Assembly: GCA_013815505.1 (NCBI GenBank)
Contig: JACDGA010000001.1
Coordinates: 1 to 25,637 of the forward strand
Direction of reading: 5' to 3'
From: Acidimicrobiia bacterium
Lineage (GTDB): Bacteria; Actinomycetota; Acidimicrobiia; Acidimicrobiales; Ilumatobacteraceae
DNA: 25,637 nucleotides
Shown: piece after piece, positions 424 through 13,383 of the stretch
How the letters are laid out: every line of letters starts with the position of its first letter
Position numbering within the stretch: position 1 is the stretch's first letter
Made by a program: the position numbers and the translations under genes
Notes under the pieces: generated by a model
The model's database searches: none
Told to the model about the DNA's origin: nothing
What the model saw: the letters and a program-made list of their open reading frames with translations, nothing else

Positions 424-499
424 TGGCACCCCCAACGGGATTCGAACCCGTGCCGCCACCTTGAAAGGGTGGTGTCCTAGGCCGCTAGACGATGGGGGC
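424..499 (-). tRNA. tRNA-Glu(TTC)
   Basis: Acceptor stem GCCCCCA/TGGGGGT, anticodon loop CTTTCAA, T-loop GGTTCGAATCC, encoded CCA. Glu-Asp-Phe order is a familiar actinobacterial tRNA cluster. Confidence 0.96.
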
Positions 500-537
500 C
501 TGCGGAGCCGGGTCCGCTTCTCGCTGAGAGCGAGATG

Positions 538-546
538 ACGTTAGCA
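538..546 (-). promoter_or_regulatory. Extended -10 promoter (TGC-TAACGT) for the tRNA cluster
   Basis: TGnTANNNT match on the minus strand about 40 nt upstream of tRNA-Glu. Confidence 0.55.
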
Positions 547-594
547 GCATCGCCGTCGGACTCCACTGGGCCGATCAGCCGCCCTGCGGGCGCC

Positions 595-1083
595 TCACAA
601 TGACCGGACGGTCCACTCCAGCAGCCACGACAGCCAGGTGTAGAGCTGATACTCGGGCCGGTCGTCGAGGCGCTCCTCCTCGGCATCCTCGTCGTCCTCG
701 TCCGTGATCTCGAGCATCGTCCCGAGCACGAGGCGGATCGTGTTGATCGAGCGCATGAACGCATTCGCGCCCGACTCGTCGAGCAGCGCTGTGCTGCGTG
801 ACAGCGACGCCCTGACCGTGTCGATCGCGCCGAGGCGACTCGCCAGCAACTCGTCCGACATCAGCCGGGCGTACTCCGCCGAGCGCTCGGGGTCCGAGTA
901 GGCGTCGGGGTTGAGCCGCCCCGCCAGTTCGGGCGACAGCACCGCCCTGCCGTCGGCGCCGTCGGCTGTCGCGGCCAGCATCTCGGCGAGCTCGCCGAGC
1001 AGTCGCTCGAGGAGGGAGCGTTCGTCGGCAGGGAGGTCGATCTCGATGCCGCCCTCCACCCGACGCACCGGTGGCTCGAACAT
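595..1083 (-). CDS. DUF2017-like protein (usual clpS partner)
   Basis: MFEPPVRRVEGGIEIDLPADERSLL..., RLNPDAY.D, 'AFMRSINTIRLVLGT.L', C-terminal YQLYTWLSWLLE. Lies immediately downstream of clpS, as in other actinobacteria. Start could be GTG 1101. Confidence 0.75.
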   Translation of the reverse strand: MFEPPVRRVEGGIEIDLPADERSLLERLLGELAEMLAATADGADGRAVLSPELAGRLNPDAYSDPERSAEYARLMSDELLASRLGAIDTVRASLSRSTALLDESGANAFMRSINTIRLVLGTMLEITDEDDEDAEEERLDDRPEYQLYTWLSWLLEWTVRSL

Positions 1084-1120
1084 CGAGCTCGCGCCGTTCA
1101 CGCCGAGCCTCTCGTCGGGT

Positions 1121-1411
1121 TCATCGGTCGTGTTCCATGCTGGCCCACAGGCCGTGCTCGTGGAGCCGGAACACGTGCAGCTCCGCCTGCTCGCGGGCAC
1201 CGGACGAGACGACGGCCTTGCCCTTGTGGTGGACGTCGAGCATCAGCGCCGTCGCCTTCTCGAGGTCGTAGCCGAAGAGCTTCTGGAGCACGTGGGTGAC
1301 GTAGCTCATGAGGTTGATCGGGTCGTTCCACACGATCACGACCCACGGATGGTCCTCGGCCGTCTCGTCGTCGACGTTCGATTCGATCACGGGGGTGGTC
1401 GACGTCGACAT
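1121..1411 (-). CDS. clpS: ATP-dependent Clp protease adaptor ClpS
   Basis: [25 protein letters not shown]...[13 protein letters not shown], the actinobacterial ClpS signature. Confidence 0.95.
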
Positions 1412-1579
1412 CGCTCAACAGTCTGCCGTGATCCTGCGGGCTCGTCGTCCGCTTCGCTTTCTCCTCACGCCGCGTGCGACTCGTCGCTGGCGCTTCCCTC
1501 GTCGCATCCCCGCTGGCTCGGCGCGTTCCCGGTCGGGTGAGGTTGGGTGCAGCGAAATCGGCCGCCGTACGATGGAGGC

Positions 1580-2572
1580 GTGTCCGTCGGCAGCCGCCCG
1601 CTCGTCCCGTCGCGGCTCGCACCGCATGGAACGGCGCGCCCACCGCTCGTCCCCCACGACGCGGGCGACGTCGTCGGCCCTCCGCACGGCCACGCACCAG
1701 CGTCCACTGTCGCCGCCTACATCGCGCTGACGAAGCCGCGCATCATCGAGCTGCTGCTCATCACGACGGTGCCGACGATGATCCTTGCCCGGCAGGGCTG
1801 GCCGTCCACCGCGCTCGTGGTGGTCACAGTCATCGGCGGCACCCTCGCCGCGGGTGGCGCCAACGCCATCAACATGGTCGTCGACCGCGACATCGACCGG
1901 CTGATGCAGCGCACGCAAGGTCGCCCACTCGTCACCGGCGCCATGACGCCCACGTCGGCGCTCGCGTTCGCGCTCGCGCTCGAAGCCGCAGCGTTCGCCG
2001 TGCTGTGGTGGGGCGCCAACCTGCTCTCCGCCGTGTTGGCCCTGGCTGCAACGGCCTTCTACGTCGGCGTCTACACGCTCTGGTTGAAGCGCACCAGTCG
2101 CCAGAACATCGTCATCGGTGGGGCGGCCGGTGCGGTACCGGTGCTCGTCGGCTGGGCGGCCGTGCGCGACTCGCTCGGCTGGGAGCCGATCGTGTTGTTC
2201 GCCGTCATGTTCCTGTGGACGCCGCCGCACTTCTGGGCGCTGGCGATCAAGTACCGCGACGACTATCGCGCCGCCGGAGTGCCGATGTTGCCGAGCGTGG
2301 TGCCGCTGCGCGAGGCGGCACAACAGATGATGGCCTACACCGTGCTGCTCGTCGCCAGCACGTTGGTGCTCGCTCCCGTGGCCTCGCTGTCGTGGATCTA
2401 CACGGTCGCTGCGGCCCTGCTCGGCGCCGTCTTCGTGTCGCTCAATGTGGTACTCGTCCGCCGCCCCACACCGGCGATGAGCATGCGGGTCTTCACCTAC
2501 AGCATCACCTATGTGACCCTTCTCTTTGGGGCGATCGTGGTCGACGTGTTCGTCCGCCACGGCGTCTCGTGA
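1580..2572 (+). CDS. ctaB: Heme o synthase (protoheme IX farnesyltransferase)
   Basis: LTKPRII, NMVVDRDIDRLMQRTQGRPL, YTLWLKR, NIVIGGAAGA, FLWTPPHFWAL. Start chosen at GTG 1580, 6 nt after a TACGAT -10. Confidence 0.95.
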   Translation: MSVGSRPLVPSRLAPHGTARPPLVPHDAGDVVGPPHGHAPASTVAAYIALTKPRIIELLLITTVPTMILARQGWPSTALVVVTVIGGTLAAGGANAINMVVDRDIDRLMQRTQGRPLVTGAMTPTSALAFALALEAAAFAVLWWGANLLSAVLALAATAFYVGVYTLWLKRTSRQNIVIGGAAGAVPVLVGWAAVRDSLGWEPIVLFAVMFLWTPPHFWALAIKYRDDYRAAGVPMLPSVVPLREAAQQMMAYTVLLVASTLVLAPVASLSWIYTVAAALLGAVFVSLNVVLVRRPTPAMSMRVFTYSITYVTLLFGAIVVDVFVRHGVS

Positions 2573-2659
2573 TTCCGATCCGTTGCCTGCTGGCAGGTAG
2601 TGTCGGCGCCGTTACCGACGCCCTGCTCCGCCGTTCCGATCTTCGATGAGACCATCTGA

Positions 2660-4321
2660 ATGACCACCCTTGACACCAGCGCCGCCGCGACGACCAACGA
2701 CGGTCGCGCGCTCGTCGCTGACGACACGATCGGTGTGTTCGACTCGATGTCGGGCTGGCTGACCACCACCGATCACAAGCGCATCGGACGGCTCTTCGTC
2801 GTGTCCTCGCTCGTCGTGGGCGTCGCTGTGGCGCTGGTCGCCGTCGTGCTGGGCATCGAGCGGGTTGCCGACGGCGAGGTCTTCGATGCATCCGCCGTGC
2901 CGCAGCTGTTCGCTGCGTTCCGCTTCGGACTCGTGTACTCCCTCGCACTGCCGCTGATGGTGGGCCTCGCCATCGCCGTCGTGCCGCTGCAGGTCGGCGC
3001 GCGAGCGCTGGCGTTCCCGAGGCTGGCACTCACCGGCTTCTGGTTCTGGGCGAGCGGCCTCGTGTTCGTCGCCATCGCTCTCGCCAACAACGGCGGGCCG
3101 GCGGGGGGCGACCCCGACATGGTCGACCTCTTCCTCGCCGCCTACGCGCTGCAGCTGATCGGGCTGCTCGCAGCGGGCGTGTCCGTCGCCACCACCGTGC
3201 TGACGGCGAGAGTCCCCGGCATGACGCTGCGCCGGATCCCGCTGTTCTCCTGGTCGGCGCTCGTGCAGGCCATCGCGATCACGCTCACGCTGCCCCTGCA
3301 GATCGGGCTCGTCGTCTACCTGTTCGTCGACCACCGCAACGGCCGTCTCGCCTTCGGTGGCAACACCGGCATCGGGCAGTGGCTCGGGTACGGGGTCACC
3401 CAGCCGATGACATACGTCGCCGCGACCACCGTGTTCGGCCTCGCGCTCGAACTGGTCGCCGTCACGTTCGGTCGACGGTTGCAGCTCCGCAGCGTGCTCT
3501 ACGCCGGCGTCGGACTCGTCGGCGTGGGTGCCCTCGGTGCCGTCACGCAGCAGACCCGCAACTTCGAGGTCCTGTGGCGCACGGCCGGCGCGCCCGACGA
3601 CGCCGCCGAGACGCTCGGCGACATCGTCACGCTCGGGCTGTTCCTCGGGTTGCCGCTGCTCGGCGCCCTCACCGTGCTCGGCGCCGGCGGGTTGACCGCT
3701 GCGGCCGCCCCGAAGGTGCGCCCCCGGATCTCCGGTCCGTTCGTCATGTCGTTCCTCGGTGCCGGCATGGTCGTCACCGGCATGGTCGGCGGGCTCGTGT
3801 ACCCCATCGGGATCTTCGGACTCAGCGGCACCGTCTTCGAGGAGGCATGCCTCGTCTACGTCGTCTACGGCACAGTGCTCGCCGGCATGGGCGCCGTCGC
3901 CTACTGGGCGCCGAAGTGGTGGGGCCGCCTGATCCCCGACAAGCAGGTGCTCGGCCTCGGCGCGCTGGGCATGATCGCCACCGTGCTCGCCTCGCTGCCC
4001 TACGTCGTCGCAGGGTTCGCCGACCAACCGGCCGGGGCCGTCGACTTCGACTACGAGGGGCCGAAGGTGCTGTGGAACCTCGCCGTCACCGCGGGACACG
4101 CGCTGATGGCCGTCGTCGTGCTCGCCTTCGTCGGACTCGTGGCGAAGACAGCCACCGGTCGCGGTGGCGACGACGCGCACGACGACCCGTGGGGTGGTCA
4201 GACGCTCGAGTGGGCCACCGCGTCCCCGGCGCCGCGTGACAACTTCGCCGAGGTCGGCTCGGTGATGTCGCCCGAGCCGCTGCTCGACTCGACGGCCGAG
4301 CCGGACGAGGAAGGTCGTTGA
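2660..4321 (+). CDS. Cytochrome c oxidase subunit I-like protein lacking metal ligands (pseudo-CoxI)
   Basis: Keeps fold motifs TTDHKRIG, PLQVGARALAFPR, PGMTLRRIPLFSW, YWAPKWWGR, DPWGGQTLEW..SP.P..NF. Positions of the six His ligands read F, Q, A, V, C, V by manual alignment to CtaD at 7279. Confidence 0.85.
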   Translation: MTTLDTSAAATTNDGRALVADDTIGVFDSMSGWLTTTDHKRIGRLFVVSSLVVGVAVALVAVVLGIERVADGEVFDASAVPQLFAAFRFGLVYSLALPLMVGLAIAVVPLQVGARALAFPRLALTGFWFWASGLVFVAIALANNGGPAGGDPDMVDLFLAAYALQLIGLLAAGVSVATTVLTARVPGMTLRRIPLFSWSALVQAIAITLTLPLQIGLVVYLFVDHRNGRLAFGGNTGIGQWLGYGVTQPMTYVAATTVFGLALELVAVTFGRRLQLRSVLYAGVGLVGVGALGAVTQQTRNFEVLWRTAGAPDDAAETLGDIVTLGLFLGLPLLGALTVLGAGGLTAAAAPKVRPRISGPFVMSFLGAGMVVTGMVGGLVYPIGIFGLSGTVFEEACLVYVVYGTVLAGMGAVAYWAPKWWGRLIPDKQVLGLGALGMIATVLASLPYVVAGFADQPAGAVDFDYEGPKVLWNLAVTAGHALMAVVVLAFVGLVAKTATGRGGDDAHDDPWGGQTLEWATASPAPRDNFAEVGSVMSPEPLLDSTAEPDEEGR

Positions 4322-4896
4322 TGCAGGCCCTCGCAGCCGCCCCTGCCCCTGCGCCGCGCCGCCAGGTGCTCGTCGGCACCGCGTTCGCGTGCGTTGCCGG
4401 CACGATGCTCGTCGGCGGGATGCTGGCCGTCTGGCTCGTGATCCGTGACCGTGCCATCGCCGCAGAGGGGACGTGGGTGCCTCCCGACGTGGCGATCCCC
4501 GAAGTGCCGTCCAACATCATGCTGATCAGCTTCCTCGCGCTCGTCGTCTTTGCGCAGTGGGCGGTCTACGCCGCGCGCCGGGGCGAGCGGTCGAGCGCAG
4601 CGCTCGCACTCGGCGCCACGGGCCTCGTCGCGATCGCCGTCGTCAACGCCCAGGCGTTCGTCTACTCACAGATGGAGCTGCCGATCGCAGACACGGCCTA
4701 CGGGCCGATGTTCTACGCCGTCACCGGGGTCTTCCTGGTGCTGATGGTGGTCGGGCTGGCGTTCACCGTCGTGACGGCGTTCCGCGTGCTCGGTGGCCGC
4801 AGCGACGGCGACGTCGTCGCCGCCCACGCCCTGTACTGGTACTTCGTGGCGGCGGCGTTCGCTGCGATCTGGCTGATCGTGTACGTGACGAAGTGA
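4321..4896 (+). CDS. Cytochrome c oxidase subunit III-like protein, degenerate
   Basis: About five hydrophobic helices; MFYAVTG (cf. FYALTGFHG) and LYWYFV...IW (cf. LYWHFVD.VW). ATG overlaps the upstream stop (TGATG). Confidence 0.8.
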   Translation: MQALAAAPAPAPRRQVLVGTAFACVAGTMLVGGMLAVWLVIRDRAIAAEGTWVPPDVAIPEVPSNIMLISFLALVVFAQWAVYAARRGERSSAALALGATGLVAIAVVNAQAFVYSQMELPIADTAYGPMFYAVTGVFLVLMVVGLAFTVVTAFRVLGGRSDGDVVAAHALYWYFVAAAFAAIWLIVYVTK

Positions 4897-4912: not shown

Positions 4913-6064
4913 ATGCTCACCAACGGGTCCAAGCTGCTCCTCGCCGGCACCACGCTGGCTGCGGTCGCAGCGATCGTCTACGGCGTCACGCAGGACGGCA
5001 CGCTCGGCGTCGTCGGCCTGCTGTCGGCCGCCATTGCCCTCGGTTTGCTCGCCGGCATCGTCATCGCCACCCGCGATGGCAACGTGTCGGCGATGGACGA
5101 GGCGGCGGCACAGACCGCTGTGGCAACCCACGTCGCGCCCGAGGGCAACATCTGGCCGCTCATCGTCGCCGGTGGTGCCGCACTCGTCGTGCTCGGGCTC
5201 GTGACGCAGTCGGCGTTCGTGATGCTCGGCATCGGGCTGCTGCTCATCGCGGGACTGCAGTGGATGGTCGACGCGTGGAGCCAGAGCGCATCTGCTGACG
5301 GCACGTTCAACCGCGACGCGAGGGCCCGCTTCGCCGGTCCGCTCGAGTTCCCGCTGCTCGCCACGGCGGTGGGGGGCGTGGTCGTCTTCTCGTTCAGCCG
5401 GATCATGCTGTTCCTGTCGAAGACGGCGGGTCCGGTGGGGTTCGTCGTCGCCGCACTGCTGATCCTCGCCGGCGGCTTCCTGTTCGCCTCGCAGCGGTCG
5501 ATGCGGTCCACCGCCGTTGCGGGCCTCACCGCGTTCGCTGCACTCGGCCTCGTCGCCGGCGGCGTGGCGGCCGGTCTCGACGGCGAGCGGTTCATCGAGG
5601 AGCACGAGACGACGGGCTTGCTCGGCGAGGAATCCGAGTGCGACACGACGGACGAGACCCACGCGGACGAGAACGCCTCACAGACGGTCGGCAACAAGGC
5701 CGCCATCATGGCCGACATCACCCTCGACGCCGAGGGTGAGCTGACGTCGAAGGCGCCCGGCCAGCAGGCCAGCCAGCGCATCGTGGTCGGGCGAGGCAAC
5801 CCGAGCAACATCATCTTCCACAACGAGAGCGACGAGCCGCGCCGGATCACGTTGACCACGGGGCAGCGGCCGCTGCTCGACGAGGAGGGTGAGGAGATCG
5901 AGGGTCAGACGACGCCCGATCAGCGCTGCACCGCACTCGCCGAGGAGGGCGGTTCGCAACTCCTCACGTTCAGAATCGACAAGCGCTCCGCCGTCGCCGA
6001 CGAGGCCTTCGAGTTGACGGTCCCAGGCGTCGAGGGACAGGCCATCGAAGTGGTGGTGCCGTGA
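4913..6064 (+). CDS. Membrane protein: CtaF-like N-terminus, extra TM helices and a C-terminal beta-rich, cupredoxin-like soluble domain
   Basis: N-terminal pattern P..NIWPLIVA...W resembles actinobacterial subunit IV (CtaF). About 7 TM segments, then an acidic beta-rich domain (NIIFHNESDEPRRITL...GGSQLLTFRI...FELTVPG) without a Cys/His/Met copper set. Domain calls are by eye. Confidence 0.55.
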   Translation: MLTNGSKLLLAGTTLAAVAAIVYGVTQDGTLGVVGLLSAAIALGLLAGIVIATRDGNVSAMDEAAAQTAVATHVAPEGNIWPLIVAGGAALVVLGLVTQSAFVMLGIGLLLIAGLQWMVDAWSQSASADGTFNRDARARFAGPLEFPLLATAVGGVVVFSFSRIMLFLSKTAGPVGFVVAALLILAGGFLFASQRSMRSTAVAGLTAFAALGLVAGGVAAGLDGERFIEEHETTGLLGEESECDTTDETHADENASQTVGNKAAIMADITLDAEGELTSKAPGQQASQRIVVGRGNPSNIIFHNESDEPRRITLTTGQRPLLDEEGEEIEGQTTPDQRCTALAEEGGSQLLTFRIDKRSAVADEAFELTVPGVEGQAIEVVVP

Positions 6065-7272
6065 CGGCTCCCGCTACCGTGATCCGCGTGCCCTCCCACC
6101 GAAGGTTGATGCTCGCCGTCGGTGCAATCGCAGCGGTCACGCTCACTGCCTGCGCCGAAGATGCGCCCCAGGACACGTGGCAGCCCGAAGGCGAGAACTC
6201 CACCCGCATCCACAACCTGCAGTGGCCCGTGTTCGCCATCGCCGGCGTCGTCGGACTGCTCGTCTTCCTCGCCATCGTGTGGGTCGTCATCCGCTATCGC
6301 GACCGCGGGCAGCCCATCCCGAAGCAGTCGCACGGCAAGCCGGCGCTCGAGATCGCGCTCACGATCCTGCCCGCACTGATCCTCGTGGGGGTCGCCGTGC
6401 CGACCGTCGGCACGCTGATGGCATTGGCCGAGACCGACGACACCGAGTGCTCGGTCAACGTCTATGGGCAGCAGTGGTGGTGGGAGGTCGAATATCCCGA
6501 GCAGAAGGGCTGTGGCGGCATCGATCGCGAGTTCGTCACGAGCGGCCAGATGGTGATCCCCACCGGCACGAAGGTGCTGGTCAGCGGTACGAGCCGTGAC
6601 GTCATCCACAGCTGGTGGATCCCGGCGTTGAACGGCAAGAAGGACATGGTCCCCGGTCGCGTGCACACCGTGCGAACCCAGGCCGACGAGCCAGGGATCT
6701 ACGCCGGCCAGTGCACGGAGTTCTGCGGTCTGTCGCACGCCAACATGCGCATGGAGGTGGTCGCCCTCGACCCCGGCGACTTCGAGACGTGGAAGGCCAA
6801 CCAACTGAAGCCGTATGCCGCGCCCGAGGAGGGCTCGATCGCCGCTGAGGGCGAGTCGGCGTTCATCTCGCAATGCGCCCGCTGCCACGTCGTCGACGGC
6901 CTCGACGACGGCGGCGTCAACGCGCCCGAGCAGTTCGTCTACTCGCGCACGGCGCCCAACCTCACGAACCTGATGACGCGCAACACGTTTGCCGGCGCGA
7001 CGTTCGACCTGCTCACCGACGAGTGCCGCGAACGCGTGTGGGAGGCGACGCCGGAGGAGTTCGGCGAGCGCTACCTCGAGGGCGTCACGCCGGAGTGCCT
7101 CAACGAGGTCGACCTCAGGGCGTGGATCAAGAACGCTCCGGCGATGAAGCCGATGTACACCGACGGCACGAAGCTCGGCCCGACTGACGGCAGGTCACGC
7201 GGCATGCCCGCCCTCGGGCTCAACGACGACCAGGCCGATCAGCTCGTCGCCTACCTCTTGGAACGGAACTAG
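6061..7272 (+). CDS. ctaC: Cytochrome c oxidase subunit II with fused cytochrome c (caa3 type), lipoprotein
   Basis: Lipobox LTAC, GQQWWWEVEY, CuA ligands DVIHSWW and CTEFCGLSHANM, heme c motif CARCH. GTG overlaps the upstream TGA. Confidence 0.95.
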   Translation: MTAPATVIRVPSHRRLMLAVGAIAAVTLTACAEDAPQDTWQPEGENSTRIHNLQWPVFAIAGVVGLLVFLAIVWVVIRYRDRGQPIPKQSHGKPALEIALTILPALILVGVAVPTVGTLMALAETDDTECSVNVYGQQWWWEVEYPEQKGCGGIDREFVTSGQMVIPTGTKVLVSGTSRDVIHSWWIPALNGKKDMVPGRVHTVRTQADEPGIYAGQCTEFCGLSHANMRMEVVALDPGDFETWKANQLKPYAAPEEGSIAAEGESAFISQCARCHVVDGLDDGGVNAPEQFVYSRTAPNLTNLMTRNTFAGATFDLLTDECRERVWEATPEEFGERYLEGVTPECLNEVDLRAWIKNAPAMKPMYTDGTKLGPTDGRSRGMPALGLNDDQADQLVAYLLERN

Positions 7273-7278
7273 CCCACG

Positions 7279-9300
7279 ATGGCCATCATCGAGCGCCCCG
7301 CCACCGAACCCGTCGTCGCTCCCACCCCCACTCCCGCCCCAATCGTGACGCCCTCCGAGGCGTTCGGCACGTTCCGCCGACCCGTCGAGACCACGGGATG
7401 GCGAGCATGGGTGTTCACCGTCGACCACAAGAAGATCGGCGTCATGTACGGCGCCGCTGCGCTGTTCTTCTTCGTGGTCGCCGGTCTCGAGGCGCTGCTC
7501 ATCCGTGCCCAGCTCGCCGGGCCGGAGGGCACGGTGCTATCGGCCGACGTCTACAACCAGATGTTCACGATGCACGCGACGACGATGATCTTCCTGTTCG
7601 CGATTCCGATGGCCGCCGGCCTCGCCAACTACCTCGTCCCGTTGCAGATCGGCGCCCGTGACGTCGCCTTCCCGCGCATCAACGCCTTTGGCTTCTGGTG
7701 CTTCCTCGCCGGCGGCATCGTCCTCAACCTCTCGTGGTTCCTCGGTGGCGCTGCCGACGGCGGCTGGTTCATGTACCAGCCCAACGCCTCCGTGCCGTTC
7801 TCGCCCACCAACGGCGTCGACTTCTGGGCGCTCGGCCTGCAGATCGCCGGCATCGCCTCGCTCACCGGCGCCATCAACCTGATCGTCACGATCCTCAACA
7901 TGCGGGCGCCGGGGATGAGCCTGATGCGCATGCCGGTGTTCACCTGGATGATCCTCGTGACCCAGTTCCTGCTCGTGTTCGCCATCCCGGTCATCACGGT
8001 GGCGTTCTTCCTGCTCACGTTCCAGCGAAGTTTCGACGCCGCCTTCTTCTCGCCGGCAGCCGGCGCCGACCCGCTGCTGTGGCAGCACCTGTTCTGGATC
8101 TTCGGGCATCCCGAGGTGTACATCCTCGTGCTGCCGTCGTTCGGCATCGTCTCCGAGGTGCTCCCGGTCTTCTCGAAGAAGCCACTGTTCGGCTACCCCT
8201 TCGTCGTCTTCTCGGGCATCGCCATCGGCTTCCTCGGGTGGGGCGTGTGGGCGCACCACATGTTCGCCTCGGGTCTCGGCCCCGTGTCGGTCGCCGTGTT
8301 CGCCACGGCGACGATGGCGATCGCCGTGCCGACCGGGGTCAAGATCATCAACTGGACGCTGACGATGTGGGGCGGCAAGTTGCGCTTCACCACGGCGATG
8401 CTCTTCGCCATGGGCCTCGTCGTGCAGTTCACGATCGGTGGCCTGTCGGGCGTCACGCACTCGGTCGCGCCGTCGGACACCCAGCAGACCGACACGTACT
8501 ACATCGTCGCCCACTTCCACTACGTCCTGTTTGGCGGGTCGGTGCTCGGGTTCTTCGCCGGCTTCTACTACTGGTGGCCGAAGGTCTTCGGCAAGTGCCT
8601 CAGCGAACGGCTGGGACGTTGGAACTTCTGGCTGATGATCATCGGGATGAACTTGACGTTCGGTCCGATGCACATCCTCGGCCTGCAGGGACAGCCGCGA
8701 CGGATGTACATCTGGACGACGGAGCGCTCGGGTGAGGGGTTCTTCAACCTCGGGTTCTGGAACCTCGTGTCGTCCATCGGTGCGTTCATCCTGGCCGTCG
8801 GTGTGCTCTTCTTCCTGACCAACATCGTCCACACGCATCGCAAGGGTGCGCCGGCGCCGCTTGACCCGTGGGACGCACGCACGCTCGAGTGGATTACGAC
8901 GAACCCGCCGAAAGAGCACAACTTCGACCGCGTCCCAACCGTCAGCCACCTCGACGAGTTCTTCCATCGCAAGTACGAGGACGTCGGCGAGGGTGATGCC
9001 CACGATCTCCGTGCGGTGGCGACCGCCGAGGAGGTGCTGGCCGCCGAGCAGGCACAGGCCGACGCCCAGATCCACATGCCGTCGCCGAGCTACTGGCCGA
9101 TCGTGGTCGCCGCCACGCTGCCGGTCATCGCCCTCGGGATCATCTACGGCGTGTACATCGTGTCCATCGTGGGTGCGCTGCTGATGGTGTTTGGGATCTT
9201 CGGCTGGGCGATGGAGCCCGGCACCGCGCCCGACTCGGACTTCGATCCGTCCCCGGTCGACGACGGCGGGCCGACCACGGAGCTGGTTCGAAGTGAGTGA
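7279..9300 (+). CDS. ctaD: Cytochrome c oxidase subunit I (A1 type) with C-terminal extension
   Basis: FTMHA, WIFGHPEVY, VWAHHMF, VAHFHY, D-pathway GARDVAFPRIN, K-pathway VPTGVKI, GQPRR. Extra IHMPSPSYWP plus hydrophobic helices at the C-terminus. Confidence 0.98.
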   Translation: MAIIERPATEPVVAPTPTPAPIVTPSEAFGTFRRPVETTGWRAWVFTVDHKKIGVMYGAAALFFFVVAGLEALLIRAQLAGPEGTVLSADVYNQMFTMHATTMIFLFAIPMAAGLANYLVPLQIGARDVAFPRINAFGFWCFLAGGIVLNLSWFLGGAADGGWFMYQPNASVPFSPTNGVDFWALGLQIAGIASLTGAINLIVTILNMRAPGMSLMRMPVFTWMILVTQFLLVFAIPVITVAFFLLTFQRSFDAAFFSPAAGADPLLWQHLFWIFGHPEVYILVLPSFGIVSEVLPVFSKKPLFGYPFVVFSGIAIGFLGWGVWAHHMFASGLGPVSVAVFATATMAIAVPTGVKIINWTLTMWGGKLRFTTAMLFAMGLVVQFTIGGLSGVTHSVAPSDTQQTDTYYIVAHFHYVLFGGSVLGFFAGFYYWWPKVFGKCLSERLGRWNFWLMIIGMNLTFGPMHILGLQGQPRRMYIWTTERSGEGFFNLGFWNLVSSIGAFILAVGVLFFLTNIVHTHRKGAPAPLDPWDARTLEWITTNPPKEHNFDRVPTVSHLDEFFHRKYEDVGEGDAHDLRAVATAEEVLAAEQAQADAQIHMPSPSYWPIVVAATLPVIALGIIYGVYIVSIVGALLMVFGIFGWAMEPGTAPDSDFDPSPVDDGGPTTELVRSE

Positions 9301-9946
9301 CGCAGCCACGCTCGAGGCCCAGGTGGCTCACGACGACCACGGCGATCACGGTGGGCACGGTGGGAACGGCGCTGGCCACCCACCCACCACGACTGGCCTG
9401 TCACACAACAAGCTCGGCATGTGGCTGTTCCTCGGGTCGGAGTGCCTGCTGTTCGGTGGGTTGATCAGCACGTACATGCTCTACCGCGGGCGAGCCAGCG
9501 AGAACCTCGGTCCCGACCAGATCTACGACCTCCCGTTCACGTCGGTGTCGAGCTTCGTGCTGCTGATGAGCTCGCTCACCATGGTGCTCGCCGTCTCGGC
9601 GGCCGGCCGCAAGGACGTGCGCAACGTGAAGCTGTGGCTCACCGTCACGGCACTGCTCGGCGCGACGTTCGTCGGTGGCCAGGTGTACGAGTTCACCAGC
9701 TTCTACCGCGAGGGCCTCGGCTTCACCACGAGCTTGTTCTCGTCGAGCTTCTACGCCCTCACCGGCTTCCACGGCGTCCACGTCTCGGTGGGCATCATCA
9801 TGTTGCTCGCCGTCGTCGGCATGATCTCTCGTGACCGCATCCCTGGCGACAGGGCTGAGGTCGTCGAGCTGGTCGGGCTCTACTGGCACTTCGTCGACAT
9901 CGTGTGGATCGTGATCTTCACCCTCGTCTACCTGATCCCGGCGTGA
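9293..9946 (+). CDS. ctaE: Cytochrome c oxidase subunit III (5-helix type)
   Basis: GMWLFLGSECLLFG, FYALTGFHGVHVSVG, GLYWHFVDIVW. GTG 9293 preceded by GGAG and overlapping the ctaD end. Confidence 0.95.
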   Translation: MSDAATLEAQVAHDDHGDHGGHGGNGAGHPPTTTGLSHNKLGMWLFLGSECLLFGGLISTYMLYRGRASENLGPDQIYDLPFTSVSSFVLLMSSLTMVLAVSAAGRKDVRNVKLWLTVTALLGATFVGGQVYEFTSFYREGLGFTTSLFSSSFYALTGFHGVHVSVGIIMLLAVVGMISRDRIPGDRAEVVELVGLYWHFVDIVWIVIFTLVYLIPA

Positions 9947-9959
9947 GCGAGAAGGTGTC

Positions 9960-10319
9960 ATGAGCGAATCCACCACCCTCGACGAGACGGCAACCGGCAC
10001 GGATGCCACCGCGCAGCACTCGCCCGAGCCCCCCGACGACGGGCACGCTCACGGCGCCACCGACGGTCAGTACATCGTCATCGCCCTGATCCTGGCCGTC
10101 ATCACCGCCGCCGAGGTGTCGCTCAGCTACATGGACGTCGGGCCGATCTTCATCCCCGCCCTGCTCGTGATGATGGCCGTCAAGTTCGTCATCGTCGTCA
10201 GCTACTTCATGCACCTGAAGTTCGACAACCGGATCTTCTCGTTCCTCTTCTACTCGGGACTCCTCCTCGCCCTCGGCGTCTACGTCCTCGCCCTCGCCAC
10301 CTTCGAATTCTTCGCGTAG
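9960..10319 (+). CDS. Prokaryotic cytochrome c oxidase subunit IV family protein
   Basis: YIVIALILAVITAAEV, AVKFVIVVSYFMHLKFD (FMHL motif), three TM helices. Confidence 0.9.
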   Translation: MSESTTLDETATGTDATAQHSPEPPDDGHAHGATDGQYIVIALILAVITAAEVSLSYMDVGPIFIPALLVMMAVKFVIVVSYFMHLKFDNRIFSFLFYSGLLLALGVYVLALATFEFFA

Positions 10320-11834: not shown

Positions 11835-12473
11835 GTGAGCACGCCGCCGCGTGAGCACGTGCAGTATCAGTCCGATGCGTTCGACGTCGGCGATCTCGCT
11901 GCCACGCCCTTCGAGCAGTGGCAGCGCTGGTACGCCGACGCGCTCGCCGCCGACGTGCCCGAACCCGACGCGATGATCGTCGCGACCTTGGACGACAATG
12001 GGGCACCCGACGCACGAGTCGTGCTGTTGCGGGACATCGACGATCGCGGGCCCGTGTTCTACACCAGCTACGAGAGCGCCAAGAGCACCCAGCTCGATGC
12101 CCGTCCCGTGGCTGCCGGCGTCGTCACGTGGGTGACGCTGCACCGCCAGGTTCGCTTCCGTGGCGCCGTCGAACGCGTCGACGCCCACCAGAGCGACGCC
12201 TACTTCTCGACCCGGCCGAGGGGCAGTCAGATCGGCGCTTGGGCATCGCCGCAGAGCGGCGAGCTACCCGACCGCGATGCGCTCGTTGCGCTCGTCGCCG
12301 CCGCCGAGCAACGCTTCGAGGGACGTGACGTGCCGCGGCCGCCGCAGTGGGGCGGTTGGCGGATCCTCGCCGACACGGTCGAGTTCTGGCAGGGCCAGCG
12401 CGACCGCCTCCACGATCGGCTCCGCTTCGAACGCGCCGGCGACACGTGGACGGTCACCCGACTCGCGCCCTGA
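11835..12473 (+). CDS. pdxH: Pyridoxamine 5'-phosphate oxidase
   Basis: PDARVVLL, FYTSYESAK, RQVRFRG, YFSTRPRGSQIGAWASPQS, VEFWQGQRDRLHDR. Confidence 0.95.
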   Translation: MSTPPREHVQYQSDAFDVGDLAATPFEQWQRWYADALAADVPEPDAMIVATLDDNGAPDARVVLLRDIDDRGPVFYTSYESAKSTQLDARPVAAGVVTWVTLHRQVRFRGAVERVDAHQSDAYFSTRPRGSQIGAWASPQSGELPDRDALVALVAAAEQRFEGRDVPRPPQWGGWRILADTVEFWQGQRDRLHDRLRFERAGDTWTVTRLAP

Positions 12474-12543
12474 GACGTCGCGGCCGTTCGCGCGCGATGC
12501 TGTCCGACGTGATGGAGTTGCTCGTACAGCCCGGGACACGCTG

Positions 12544-13383
12544 ATGCTCGTTTGGATGGACCTCGAGATGACGGGGCTCGACCACCAGCAGGACGTCATC
12601 GTCGAGATCGCCACGCTTGTCACCGACGACGACCTGAACATCGTGGCCGAGGGGCCCGACCTCGTCATCTACCAGCCCGACGAGGTCCTCGACAAGATGG
12701 ATCCGTTCGTGGCCGGCATGCACACGCGCTCCGGCCTGCTCGAGGCCATTCGCACGTCCCACGTGACGCTGCAGGACGCCGGGGCGGCGACGTACGAGTT
12801 CATCCGGTCGTACGCGCCGGTGCCGCGCACCGTGCCGCTGTGCGGCAACTCGATCGGCACCGATCGCCGTTTCCTCGCGGCCTATCTCCCCGAGATCGAG
12901 CAGCACCTGCACTACCGGTCCGTCGACGTGTCGAGCGTCAAGGAGCTCGTCAAGCGCTGGTACCGGCCGGTGTGGGACGAGCGGCCACGCAAGGAGGGGA
13001 CGCACCGGGCGCTCGACGACATCCGCGACAGCGTCGACGAGCTGCGCTTCTACCGGCGCCACGCCTTCGTGCCGCCCGTGACCGGCGTCCGGCACGTCGT
13101 GCTGTTCCGGTGGGTCGACGACGCCACGCCCGAGCAGATCGCGACGGTGAAGAGCGCGCTCGCCTCGTTGCCGTTGCTGATCCCCGAGATCAGCGGCTAC
13201 CGCGTCGGCGCCGACCTCGGCCTCGCCGGCGACAACGCGCAGTTCGCCGTCGTTGGCGACTTCGCCGACGAGGAGGCGTGGACGACCTACCGTGACCACC
13301 CAGAACACCAGAAGATCATCGCCGAGCTGATCCGTCCCCTCGTCGCGCAGCGCTGGGCAGTGCAGTTCCGCAGCGGCTCGTGA
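12544..13383 (+). CDS. orn: Oligoribonuclease fused in frame to a C-terminal Dabb (stress-responsive alpha/beta barrel) domain
   Basis: LVWMDLEMTGLD, LCGNSIGTDRRFL, HYRSVDVSSVKEL, HRALDDIRDS; then RHVVLFRW...YRDHPEHQ typical of Dabb. Confidence 0.9.
   Translation: MLVWMDLEMTGLDHQQDVIVEIATLVTDDDLNIVAEGPDLVIYQPDEVLDKMDPFVAGMHTRSGLLEAIRTSHVTLQDAGAATYEFIRSYAPVPRTVPLCGNSIGTDRRFLAAYLPEIEQHLHYRSVDVSSVKELVKRWYRPVWDERPRKEGTHRALDDIRDSVDELRFYRRHAFVPPVTGVRHVVLFRWVDDATPEQIATVKSALASLPLLIPEISGYRVGADLGLAGDNAQFAVVGDFADEEAWTTYRDHPEHQKIIAELIRPLVAQRWAVQFRSGS

Follow-up and report, generated by a model that had tools for sequence, protein, structure and literature searches.

The 25,637-nucleotide (nt) stretch of DNA analysed here, the window, comprises positions 1 to 25,637 of contig JACDGA010000001.1 of an Acidimicrobiia genome assembly (GCA_013815505.1; 2.56 Mb, 78% complete). 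It has a base composition of about 69% G+C, and its nearest relatives are Ilumatobacteraceae, class Acidimicrobiia. Within an operon for a caa3-type cytochrome c oxidase it contains a gene at positions 2660..4321 (forward strand) for a protein of 553 amino acids (aa), which has the COX1 fold of the catalytic subunit I of haem-copper oxidases (HCOs) and is devoid of the residues for haem binding, copper binding and the proton channels. The protein is a non-catalytic paralogue of subunit I. It is followed by two further proteins that lack cofactor sites, and the trio was named the 'ghost oxidase', with the members ghost I (pCoxI), ghost III (pCoxIII) and X. The first-pass annotation of this DNA had described ghost I and had missed its place as one of three cofactor-less genes that keep their order. 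The reading favoured here, to which a probability of roughly 0.55 is assigned, is that the three proteins would form a cofactor-free replica complex, which is produced together with the caa3 oxidase and docks to it as a structural partner.

The relationship of ghost I to the superfamily was clear. It matched the Pfam family COX1 (PF00115) with 88.1 bits at a cut-off of 34.8 bits, compared to 520 bits for the genuine subunit I (CtaD) that is encoded downstream in the same operon. The scores against the models of functional A-family subunits I were far below the respective cut-offs (TIGR02891, an equivalog model, 159.2 versus 670.75 bits; NF050116, 158 versus 880 bits). The model of the cbb3-type subunit I CcoN (TIGR00780) gave no match to ghost I at E ≤ 0.01, and all models that did match were A-family models. 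The identity to the neighbouring CtaD was 26% over 554 columns (BLASTP), and that to the actinobacterial-type CtaD of the same genome was 28%. The closest solved relatives, found with HMMER against PDB chains, were the mycobacterial and corynebacterial CtaD. An AlphaFold2 (AF2) model built from 21 homologues contained 12 core transmembrane (TM) helices and had a predicted template modelling score of 0.82, with a predicted local distance difference test score (pLDDT) of 85–95 in the core helices. Using Foldseek, the model was superimposed on CtaD from the mycobacterial and Corynebacterium supercomplexes with a TM-score of about 0.78.

The fate of the functional residues was determined with BLASTP, with HMMER against PDB chains and with MAFFT family alignments. 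In functional oxygen reductases six His are invariant: the low-spin haem is bound by two of them, the high-spin haem by one and CuB by three. In ghost I these positions are occupied by F87, V399, C397, Q248, Q297 and Q298. The first haem a His is replaced by F87 in TM2 (codons of F87 and the adjacent R88, 2918..2923), and the second haem a His as well as the haem a3 His are replaced by V399 and C397, respectively, in the TM10 stretch E394-E395-A-C397-L-V399 (3839..3856). In the TQPMTY motif (3401..3415) Q248 is found at the position of the first CuB His and M250 at that of E286, and only Y288 is retained, as Y252. The residues for the His-Tyr cross-link and for the D and K pathways are thus missing, apart from the Tyr: its His partner is a Gln, D132, N139 and N121 correspond to A116, A123 and I105, and TM8 does not contain any Lys that could represent K362 of the K pathway. 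The Arg pair that contacts the haem propionates has become A458/G459, and the Mg-site residues are gone. Ghost I has only four His altogether (39, 225, 480 and 507), none of them at a ligand position. It is established that ghost I cannot be an oxidase. The dipeptide D224-H225 was considered as a new polar motif and was rejected, as its counterpart in genuine subunits I is the ancestral DRN motif.

The assignment in TM7 depended on the alignment method. In the family alignment the WAHH motif of genuine subunits I lies opposite VTQQ, with the W-A that is retained by distant family members serving as the anchor. The His pair is thereby replaced by Q297 and Q298 (3548..3553), so that all three CuB His have been exchanged for Gln. 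The pairwise BLASTP and HMMER alignments displaced TM7 by two residues; both His were lost under every alignment. The first-pass annotation had been based on a manual alignment to CtaD, in which GVWAHH was paired with GALGAV, and this pairing turned out to be three residues out of register. Its other readings agreed with the present analysis, i.e., the replacement of all metal ligands (none of the six His was left with any alignment method), the loss of both proton pathways (D132, N139, N121 and E286, and a TM8 without Lys), the change of GHPEVY to TQPMTY with loss of the CuB His and the Glu and retention of the Tyr, the changes of IVAHFHY to EEACLVY and of QPRR to QPAG, and the survival of structural motifs at both ends. 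Two of the checks that it had proposed, an alignment to the COX1 hidden Markov model and a structure prediction, revealed no His at the ligand positions and a COX1 fold with 12 TM helices, respectively.

Ghost I is a gene and not a pseudogene. More than 1,200 homologues with 50–62% identity were found, plus one with 96% identity, and a representative library contained 236 clusters (50% identity) at E < 1e-30. A full ligand set was present in none of about 100 full-length representatives. All of the 21 sampled genomes of the same family contained a ghost I match that was far above the score range of genuine CoxI. The ratio of non-synonymous to synonymous substitution rates (dN/dS, Nei-Gojobori) of ghost I was 0.05–0.15 in 13 of 14 close locus pairs, and in the same pairs that of the genuine CoxI was 0.03–0.14. 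The exception was the pair of the window and L007, with a dN/dS of 0.27 at a dS of only 0.05. The mean column identity in the close clade was 65%. The open reading frames (ORFs) were intact in every genome examined, and in-frame TGA codons that had been flagged in three genomes proved to be the terminal stops. It was shown that the three ghost genes are under purifying selection.

Throughout the order Acidimicrobiales the trio occupies the same position. In the window a ligand-deficient subunit I gene, a subunit-III-like gene and a CtaF-like/cupredoxin gene are located between ctaB and ctaC of a caa3 operon. The order ctaB-ghost I-ghost III-X-ctaC-ctaD-ctaE-ctaF was observed in 83 close loci wherever the contig reached, and in most of about 10 distant loci from Microthrixaceae, Iamia and other Acidimicrobiales. 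The distant loci stemmed from a set of 80 loci retrieved with the pattern DPWxGxTLEW, which also occurs in genuine CoxI; about 13 of the 80 were ghost loci, about 10 of them distant, and the majority of the set belonged to genuine oxidases, e.g., from Chloroflexota and Gemmatimonadota. A ctaB gene preceded the ghost gene in all but two or three of about 90 loci with upstream flank. The cultured species Desertimonas flava SYSU D60003 also carries the module (locus L058). The junctions between the genes in the window point to translational coupling: the stop codon of ghost I and the ATG of ghost III have one base in common (TGATG), a gap of only 16 nt that contains GGGAG separates ghost III from X, and the stop codon of X overlaps the GTG start codon of ctaC by 4 nt (GTGA). 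Terminator-like sites between the cluster genes of the window were not found above the level of shuffled sequences.

Ghost III (4321..4896, forward strand) has about 191 aa and five TM helices. It matched Pfam COX3 with 46.6 bits, its sole NCBIfam match was NF050119 (aa3_CtaE_Actin), and it is 28% identical to the genuine CoxIII. The third protein, X (4913..6064, forward strand; 383 aa), consists of a CtaF-like N-terminus with four TM helices, three further TM helices and a cupredoxin domain without copper ligands. Residues 1–115 resemble the actinobacterial subunit IV CtaF (PDB 7q21_F, E = 8e-4; the match to Pfam Cyt_c_ox_IV was weak). The last 120 residues were modelled with confidence as a cupredoxin fold (AF2, pLDDT 80–90), and Foldseek matched them to auracyanin (6kol, E = 5e-5) and, with similar values of about 5e-5, to amicyanin and laccase domains. 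The fold is thus present, and the His, Cys, His and Met ligands of a type-1 copper site are absent: the copper loop has become T-VPG-V, and the first His is left in the lineage of the window alone. A conserved pair of Cys, C243 and C339, may form a disulfide. The possibility that X is a paralogue of subunit II was dropped after a comparison with the actinobacterial CtaC using hhalign had found nothing (probability 5%).

The origin of X could be traced with a profile search across the phylum. In other families of Actinomycetota, proteins of 216–330 aa matched its middle three helices with E values from 1e-9 to 1e-21. Two of them were inspected (L177:3066-3716 and L178:3491-4150), and both are membrane blue-copper proteins with a full His...Cys..His..Met site. 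They have about 220 aa, three TM helices and a Cupredoxin_1 domain, and their genes immediately follow that of the caa3 assembly factor CtaG. Proteins of this type are candidates for the membrane-anchored electron donor of the caa3 oxidases of Actinomycetota and may fulfil this role. X is thus a CtaF-like part fused to a copper-less membrane blue-copper protein, its cupredoxin part originating from a genuine protein of that kind. The cupredoxin part is variable. At L001:10235-11392 an in-frame stop splits X into a membrane part of 288 aa and a cupredoxin remnant of 84 aa, and in one family of the same order (genomes G002, G019, G039 and G059) X has only 281–288 aa and no cupredoxin.

The residues that have replaced the ligands were analysed in the 120 nearest homologues, a clade at the level of the Ilumatobacteraceae, and in 103 representatives of the wider family. 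In the close clade R88 is conserved in 118 sequences, Q248 and Q297 in 116 each, Q298 in 110, E394 in 118, and E395 as well as H480 (TM12; 4097..4099) in all 120. Y252 and V399 are less strictly kept (95 and 100 sequences). In contrast to these residues, C397 is a peculiarity of the lineage of the window, as position 397 is Ala in 68, Val in 32, Ser in 14, Thr in four and Cys in only two of the 120 sequences. The Cys at the haem a3 His position, the headline of the first-pass annotation, thereby lost its significance. The same annotation had pointed to Glu-Glu and a His in the last helix as new polar residues of the core; a conserved polar cluster of these residues is present in the close clade (118–120 of 120) and does not extend to the wider family, where E394, E395 and H480 were found in 28, 25 and 20 of the 103 representatives. 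These three residues are clade-specific. The most persistent feature of the family is Gln at two CuB positions (50 and 73 representatives), the higher number belonging to the first of the two TM7 positions (Q297). The Arg that follows the first haem a His position is present in 56 of the 103 representatives, namely in 56 of the 89 without a complete haem a His pair and in not one of the 14 with such a pair, counts that are inflated by the relatedness of the sequences. This mutual exclusivity fits an Arg side chain that would occupy, between TM2 and TM10, the space left by haem a.

In a phylogeny of 59 sequences the ghost proteins were monophyletic (support 100/100). The branch that parts them from the genuine A-family subunits I, including the actinobacterial aa3 and the caa3 groups, amounts to about one change per site, and therefore ghost I is not a recent copy of the neighbouring CtaD. 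Different stages of ligand loss are represented within the ghost clade. All three haem His are kept and CuB is missing in P0256, only the haem a pair is kept and CuB is lost in P0218, L091 and the Microthrixaceae type, and not a single haem His is left in the Ilumatobacteraceae clade, which includes the window. If the tree is rooted on the long ghost branch, which is an assumption, the series reads as a stepwise loss of CuB, then haem a3 and then haem a. A further sequence of the representative library, P0276, has retained the haem a His pair, the haem a3 His and E286, while of the three CuB His two are missing (motifs GRPEAY and WLHR). Its position in the tree is on the genuine side, as sister to all genuine subunit I sequences, and it may represent a second, independent partial loss of ligands.

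The evolutionary rate of the ghost genes is about double that of the genuine genes, with tree lengths of 16.1 for ghost I and 14.3 and 19.3 for the other two, versus 8.1 for CoxI and 8.1–9.4 for the genuine genes in general. Residual rates of seven genes were correlated over the 91 branches of one fixed topology of 47 loci. Ghost I and X had the highest coefficient of all 21 pairs (rho 0.58), compared to 0.38 for the genuine pair CoxI-CoxII, and the values of ghost I with the genuine CoxI and CoxII were 0.04 and -0.07; the normalisation across seven genes is crude, so that rate covariation is weak evidence. The pattern points to a pairing of ghost I with X that resembles the one of subunits I and II, and it offers no positive indication of co-evolution with the genuine oxidase.

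Taken together, it is proposed that the three ghost proteins assemble as a replica of an oxidase core, in which the cupredoxin domain of X would be placed like the domain of a subunit II. Based on the known architecture of subunit I, R88, E395 and H480 would presumably line the former haem a pocket, and Q248, Q297, Q298, Y252 and E394 the former binuclear pocket. The former haem a pocket might then be closed by a cluster of Arg88 (TM2), Glu395 (TM10) and His480 (TM12), and the former binuclear pocket by a hydrogen-bond network of Gln248, Gln297, Gln298, Tyr252 and Glu394; the conserved Arg, Glu and Gln replacements would be no less compatible with filled pockets than with the emptied cavity, holding lipid, quinone or a different metal, that the first-pass annotation had suggested. 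The replica would be produced in a fixed proportion to the caa3 oxidase and would dock onto it, for example as a substitute for a second monomer or as a scaffold of a supercomplex, and would neither carry electrons nor pump protons. Both oxidase sets of the genome are complete, caa3 in the window and aa3 elsewhere, and therefore the ghost set is an extra that does not fill a gap.

Several points weigh against this reading. The operon structure is the sole basis for a physical association with the caa3 oxidase, and the geometry of the pockets is derived by homology to known structures. The lack of rate covariation between ghost I and the genuine CoxI and CoxII would fit an independent complex just as well as a docked one. 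The cupredoxin cap must be dispensable, because it is absent or split off in some lineages. Lastly, the haem His of the basal members indicate that the ancestral role may have involved haem.

It is tempting to speculate further that an asymmetric caa3 'oxidase-pseudo-oxidase' complex exists, of which the stable cofactor-free replica would be the obligatory structural half, or that the emptied pockets of the replica, lined by Gln, Glu, Arg and His, contain a new site for ion binding or conduction. Both forms are tentative, and the odds are against them. If either of them were true, the caa3 oxidase would be the first respiratory enzyme known to retain an entire, inactive duplicate of its own catalytic core as a functional component.

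Among the rival explanations, a role in assembly survives best, and yet it is regarded as rather unlikely. According to this view, the trio would be a scaffold or chaperone that transiently holds subunits II, III or IV, or haem a or copper intermediates, during the loading of subunit I, and that is not part of the mature enzyme. The position between ctaB and ctaC, the presence of CtaG in the cluster of many loci, the co-translation with ctaC and the haem-binding His of basal members would all be in accordance with it. However, the adjacency to ctaB is explained by the ancestral Bacillus-type order ctaB-CDEF-G, into which the module was inserted, the ghost proteins of the Ilumatobacteraceae do not have axial ligands, and three full-size membrane proteins with coupled stoichiometry would be a costly chaperone.

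Even less probable is a new function of the old scaffold, with a buried polar site that would bind or conduct a cation, protons, water or the head group of a lipid, the complex acting independently, e.g., as a channel, transporter or sensor. The conservation of Q248, Q297, Q298, E394, E395, R88 and H480, each in 110–120 of the 120 close homologues, the family-wide Gln at two CuB positions (50/103 and 73/103) and the covariation of ghost I and X with one another and not with the genuine subunits could be taken as hints at such a site. In contrast, the conservation of E394, E395 and H480 is restricted to the close clade, both known proton-uptake routes now consist of apolar residues, no partner gene points to transport, and the module never occurs apart from the caa3 operon.

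An unconventional redox enzyme, in which Cys397, Gln or Glu would bind haem or another metal, is very improbable. Cys can serve as a haem ligand in other families of proteins, Tyr252 has been retained and polar residues are present at the old active site; against this stand the occurrence of Cys397 in only two of 120 homologues, the absence of conserved His, Cys and Met from all ligand positions, the loss of the propionate Arg pair and of the Mg-site residues, and a partner cupredoxin without a copper site, which leaves no entry for electrons. Finally, a decaying duplicate without function, for which only the roughly twofold faster evolution of ghost I (tree length 16.1 versus 8.1) could be quoted, is effectively refuted by the intact ORFs, the dN/dS of about 0.1, the order-wide monophyletic clade and the mean column identity of 65%.

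The genes that surround the trio on the forward strand are those of haem O synthase and of a complete caa3-type oxidase. The cluster opens, in the style of Bacillus cta clusters, with ctaB for haem O synthase (1547..2572; NF003349, 390 bits; Pfam UbiA). X is followed by a subunit II with a fused cytochrome c domain of the caa3 type (6061..7272; TIGR02866, 181 bits; Pfam COX2 and Cytochrom_C) and by the genuine CtaD (7279..9300; Pfam COX1, 520 bits; TIGR02891, 694 bits), which has all ligands and a C-terminal CtaF-like extension (Pfam Cyt_c_ox_IV match at residues 599–646). The gene for the genuine subunit III (9191..9946; TIGR02842/NF050119, 138–158 bits) overlaps ctaD as listed, and its true start is probably near 9300. 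Next is the gene for subunit IV (COX4_pro, 9960..10319; Pfam COX4_pro, 39.5 bits). The second oxidase set of the genome is of the actinobacterial aa3 type, with QcrB-CtaC-CtaD and CtaF in the same frame on contig C448, and further genuine genes encode CtaE (C306), a cupredoxin (C225) and CtaA. A CtaF-like segment (subunit IV, PF12270) is found in frame at the C-terminus of both genuine subunit I genes (window 9055-9220; L005:3042-3401 on C448); the ghost set differs in that its CtaF-like part forms the N-terminus of X.

Some further features of the loci were observed. A DUF2017 gene lies divergently upstream of ctaB (window 477-1200, reverse strand), and in three related loci examined ClpS adjoins it. 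Further downstream, an ORF at 12160-13383 (forward strand) encodes an RNase T-type exonuclease domain, to which a Dabb domain (stress-responsive A/B barrel) is attached C-terminally. Long spurious ORFs lie opposite to, or in other frames of, real genes, e.g., at 1474-2649 and 2612-4180 (reverse strand) of the window, as is to be expected at about 70% G+C, and in several related loci a choice of the longest ORF would have selected them.

HCOs rank among the most thoroughly studied membrane enzymes. The ghost family is a conserved branch of their superfamily that has been overlooked and that wrongly bears 'cbb3-type' or 'ubiquinol' oxidase labels in databases. As had been suspected from the window alone, family members carry public names such as 'cbb3-type cytochrome c oxidase subunit I' or 'cytochrome o ubiquinol oxidase subunit 1', and through this mislabelling too many terminal oxidases are counted in the Acidimicrobiia, which are abundant in freshwater, soil and marine habitats. 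Full-text literature searches did not find any published description of the family. A published HCO classifier discards sequences without the six His (PMC3084760), and such a filter would explain why the family is absent from the literature. New here are the exchange of the CuB His for three Gln, the mutual exclusivity of Arg88 and the haem a bis-His pair, the order of ligand loss, the origin of X, the rate covariation of ghost I and X, and the lack of conservation of Cys397. The family is a natural experiment on a cofactor-free subunit I scaffold, it represents a stepwise record of cofactor loss, and it might constitute a new type of supernumerary subunit. With Desertimonas flava SYSU D60003 as a cultured carrier, the question of its role is directly testable.

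In comparison with CtaD/CoxA of the A-family (PDB 6hwh, 6adq and 7q21), ghost I has the same 12-TM fold (TM-score 0.74–0.79), and it also has a subunit III partner. It retains the non-catalytic motifs of CtaD, i.e., DHK.IG, VPLQ.GA..AFPR, R.PGM...P.F.W, a DRN-like VDHR and DPW.G.TLEW...P..NF. In contrast to CtaD, it is devoid of the six His, E286, D132, N121, N139, K362, the propionate Arg pair and the Mg-site residues, its TM3-4 loop is 13 residues shorter, and it belongs to a separate long-branch clade outside of the actinobacterial aa3 and the caa3 groups. X shares the middle three TM helices and the cupredoxin with the 3-TM blue-copper proteins of L177 and L178, with which these parts are homologous; the latter keep the copper site, whereas X has the loop T-VPG-V and an additional CtaF-like N-terminal part with four TM helices.

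That the HCO scaffold tolerates changes of active-site residues and the loss of proton channels is known from nitric oxide (NO) reductases and newer families of NO reductase-like proteins. Nevertheless, these keep both haems and a metal site (FeB or CuB) and are enzymes, whereas the ghost clade of the Ilumatobacteraceae does not have any metal or haem ligand. Dead paralogues have become structural subunits of respiratory complexes in other cases, e.g., the peptidase-like core proteins of the bc1 complex and the gamma-carbonic-anhydrase-like subunits of plant complex I. As in these cases, an enzyme fold has stayed under selection in the ghost oxidase after the loss of catalytic residues, with the association with a complex being presumed here. 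In contrast to them, the ghost oxidase copies the catalytic core of the very complex it would belong to, together with subunits III and IV and a blue-copper protein.

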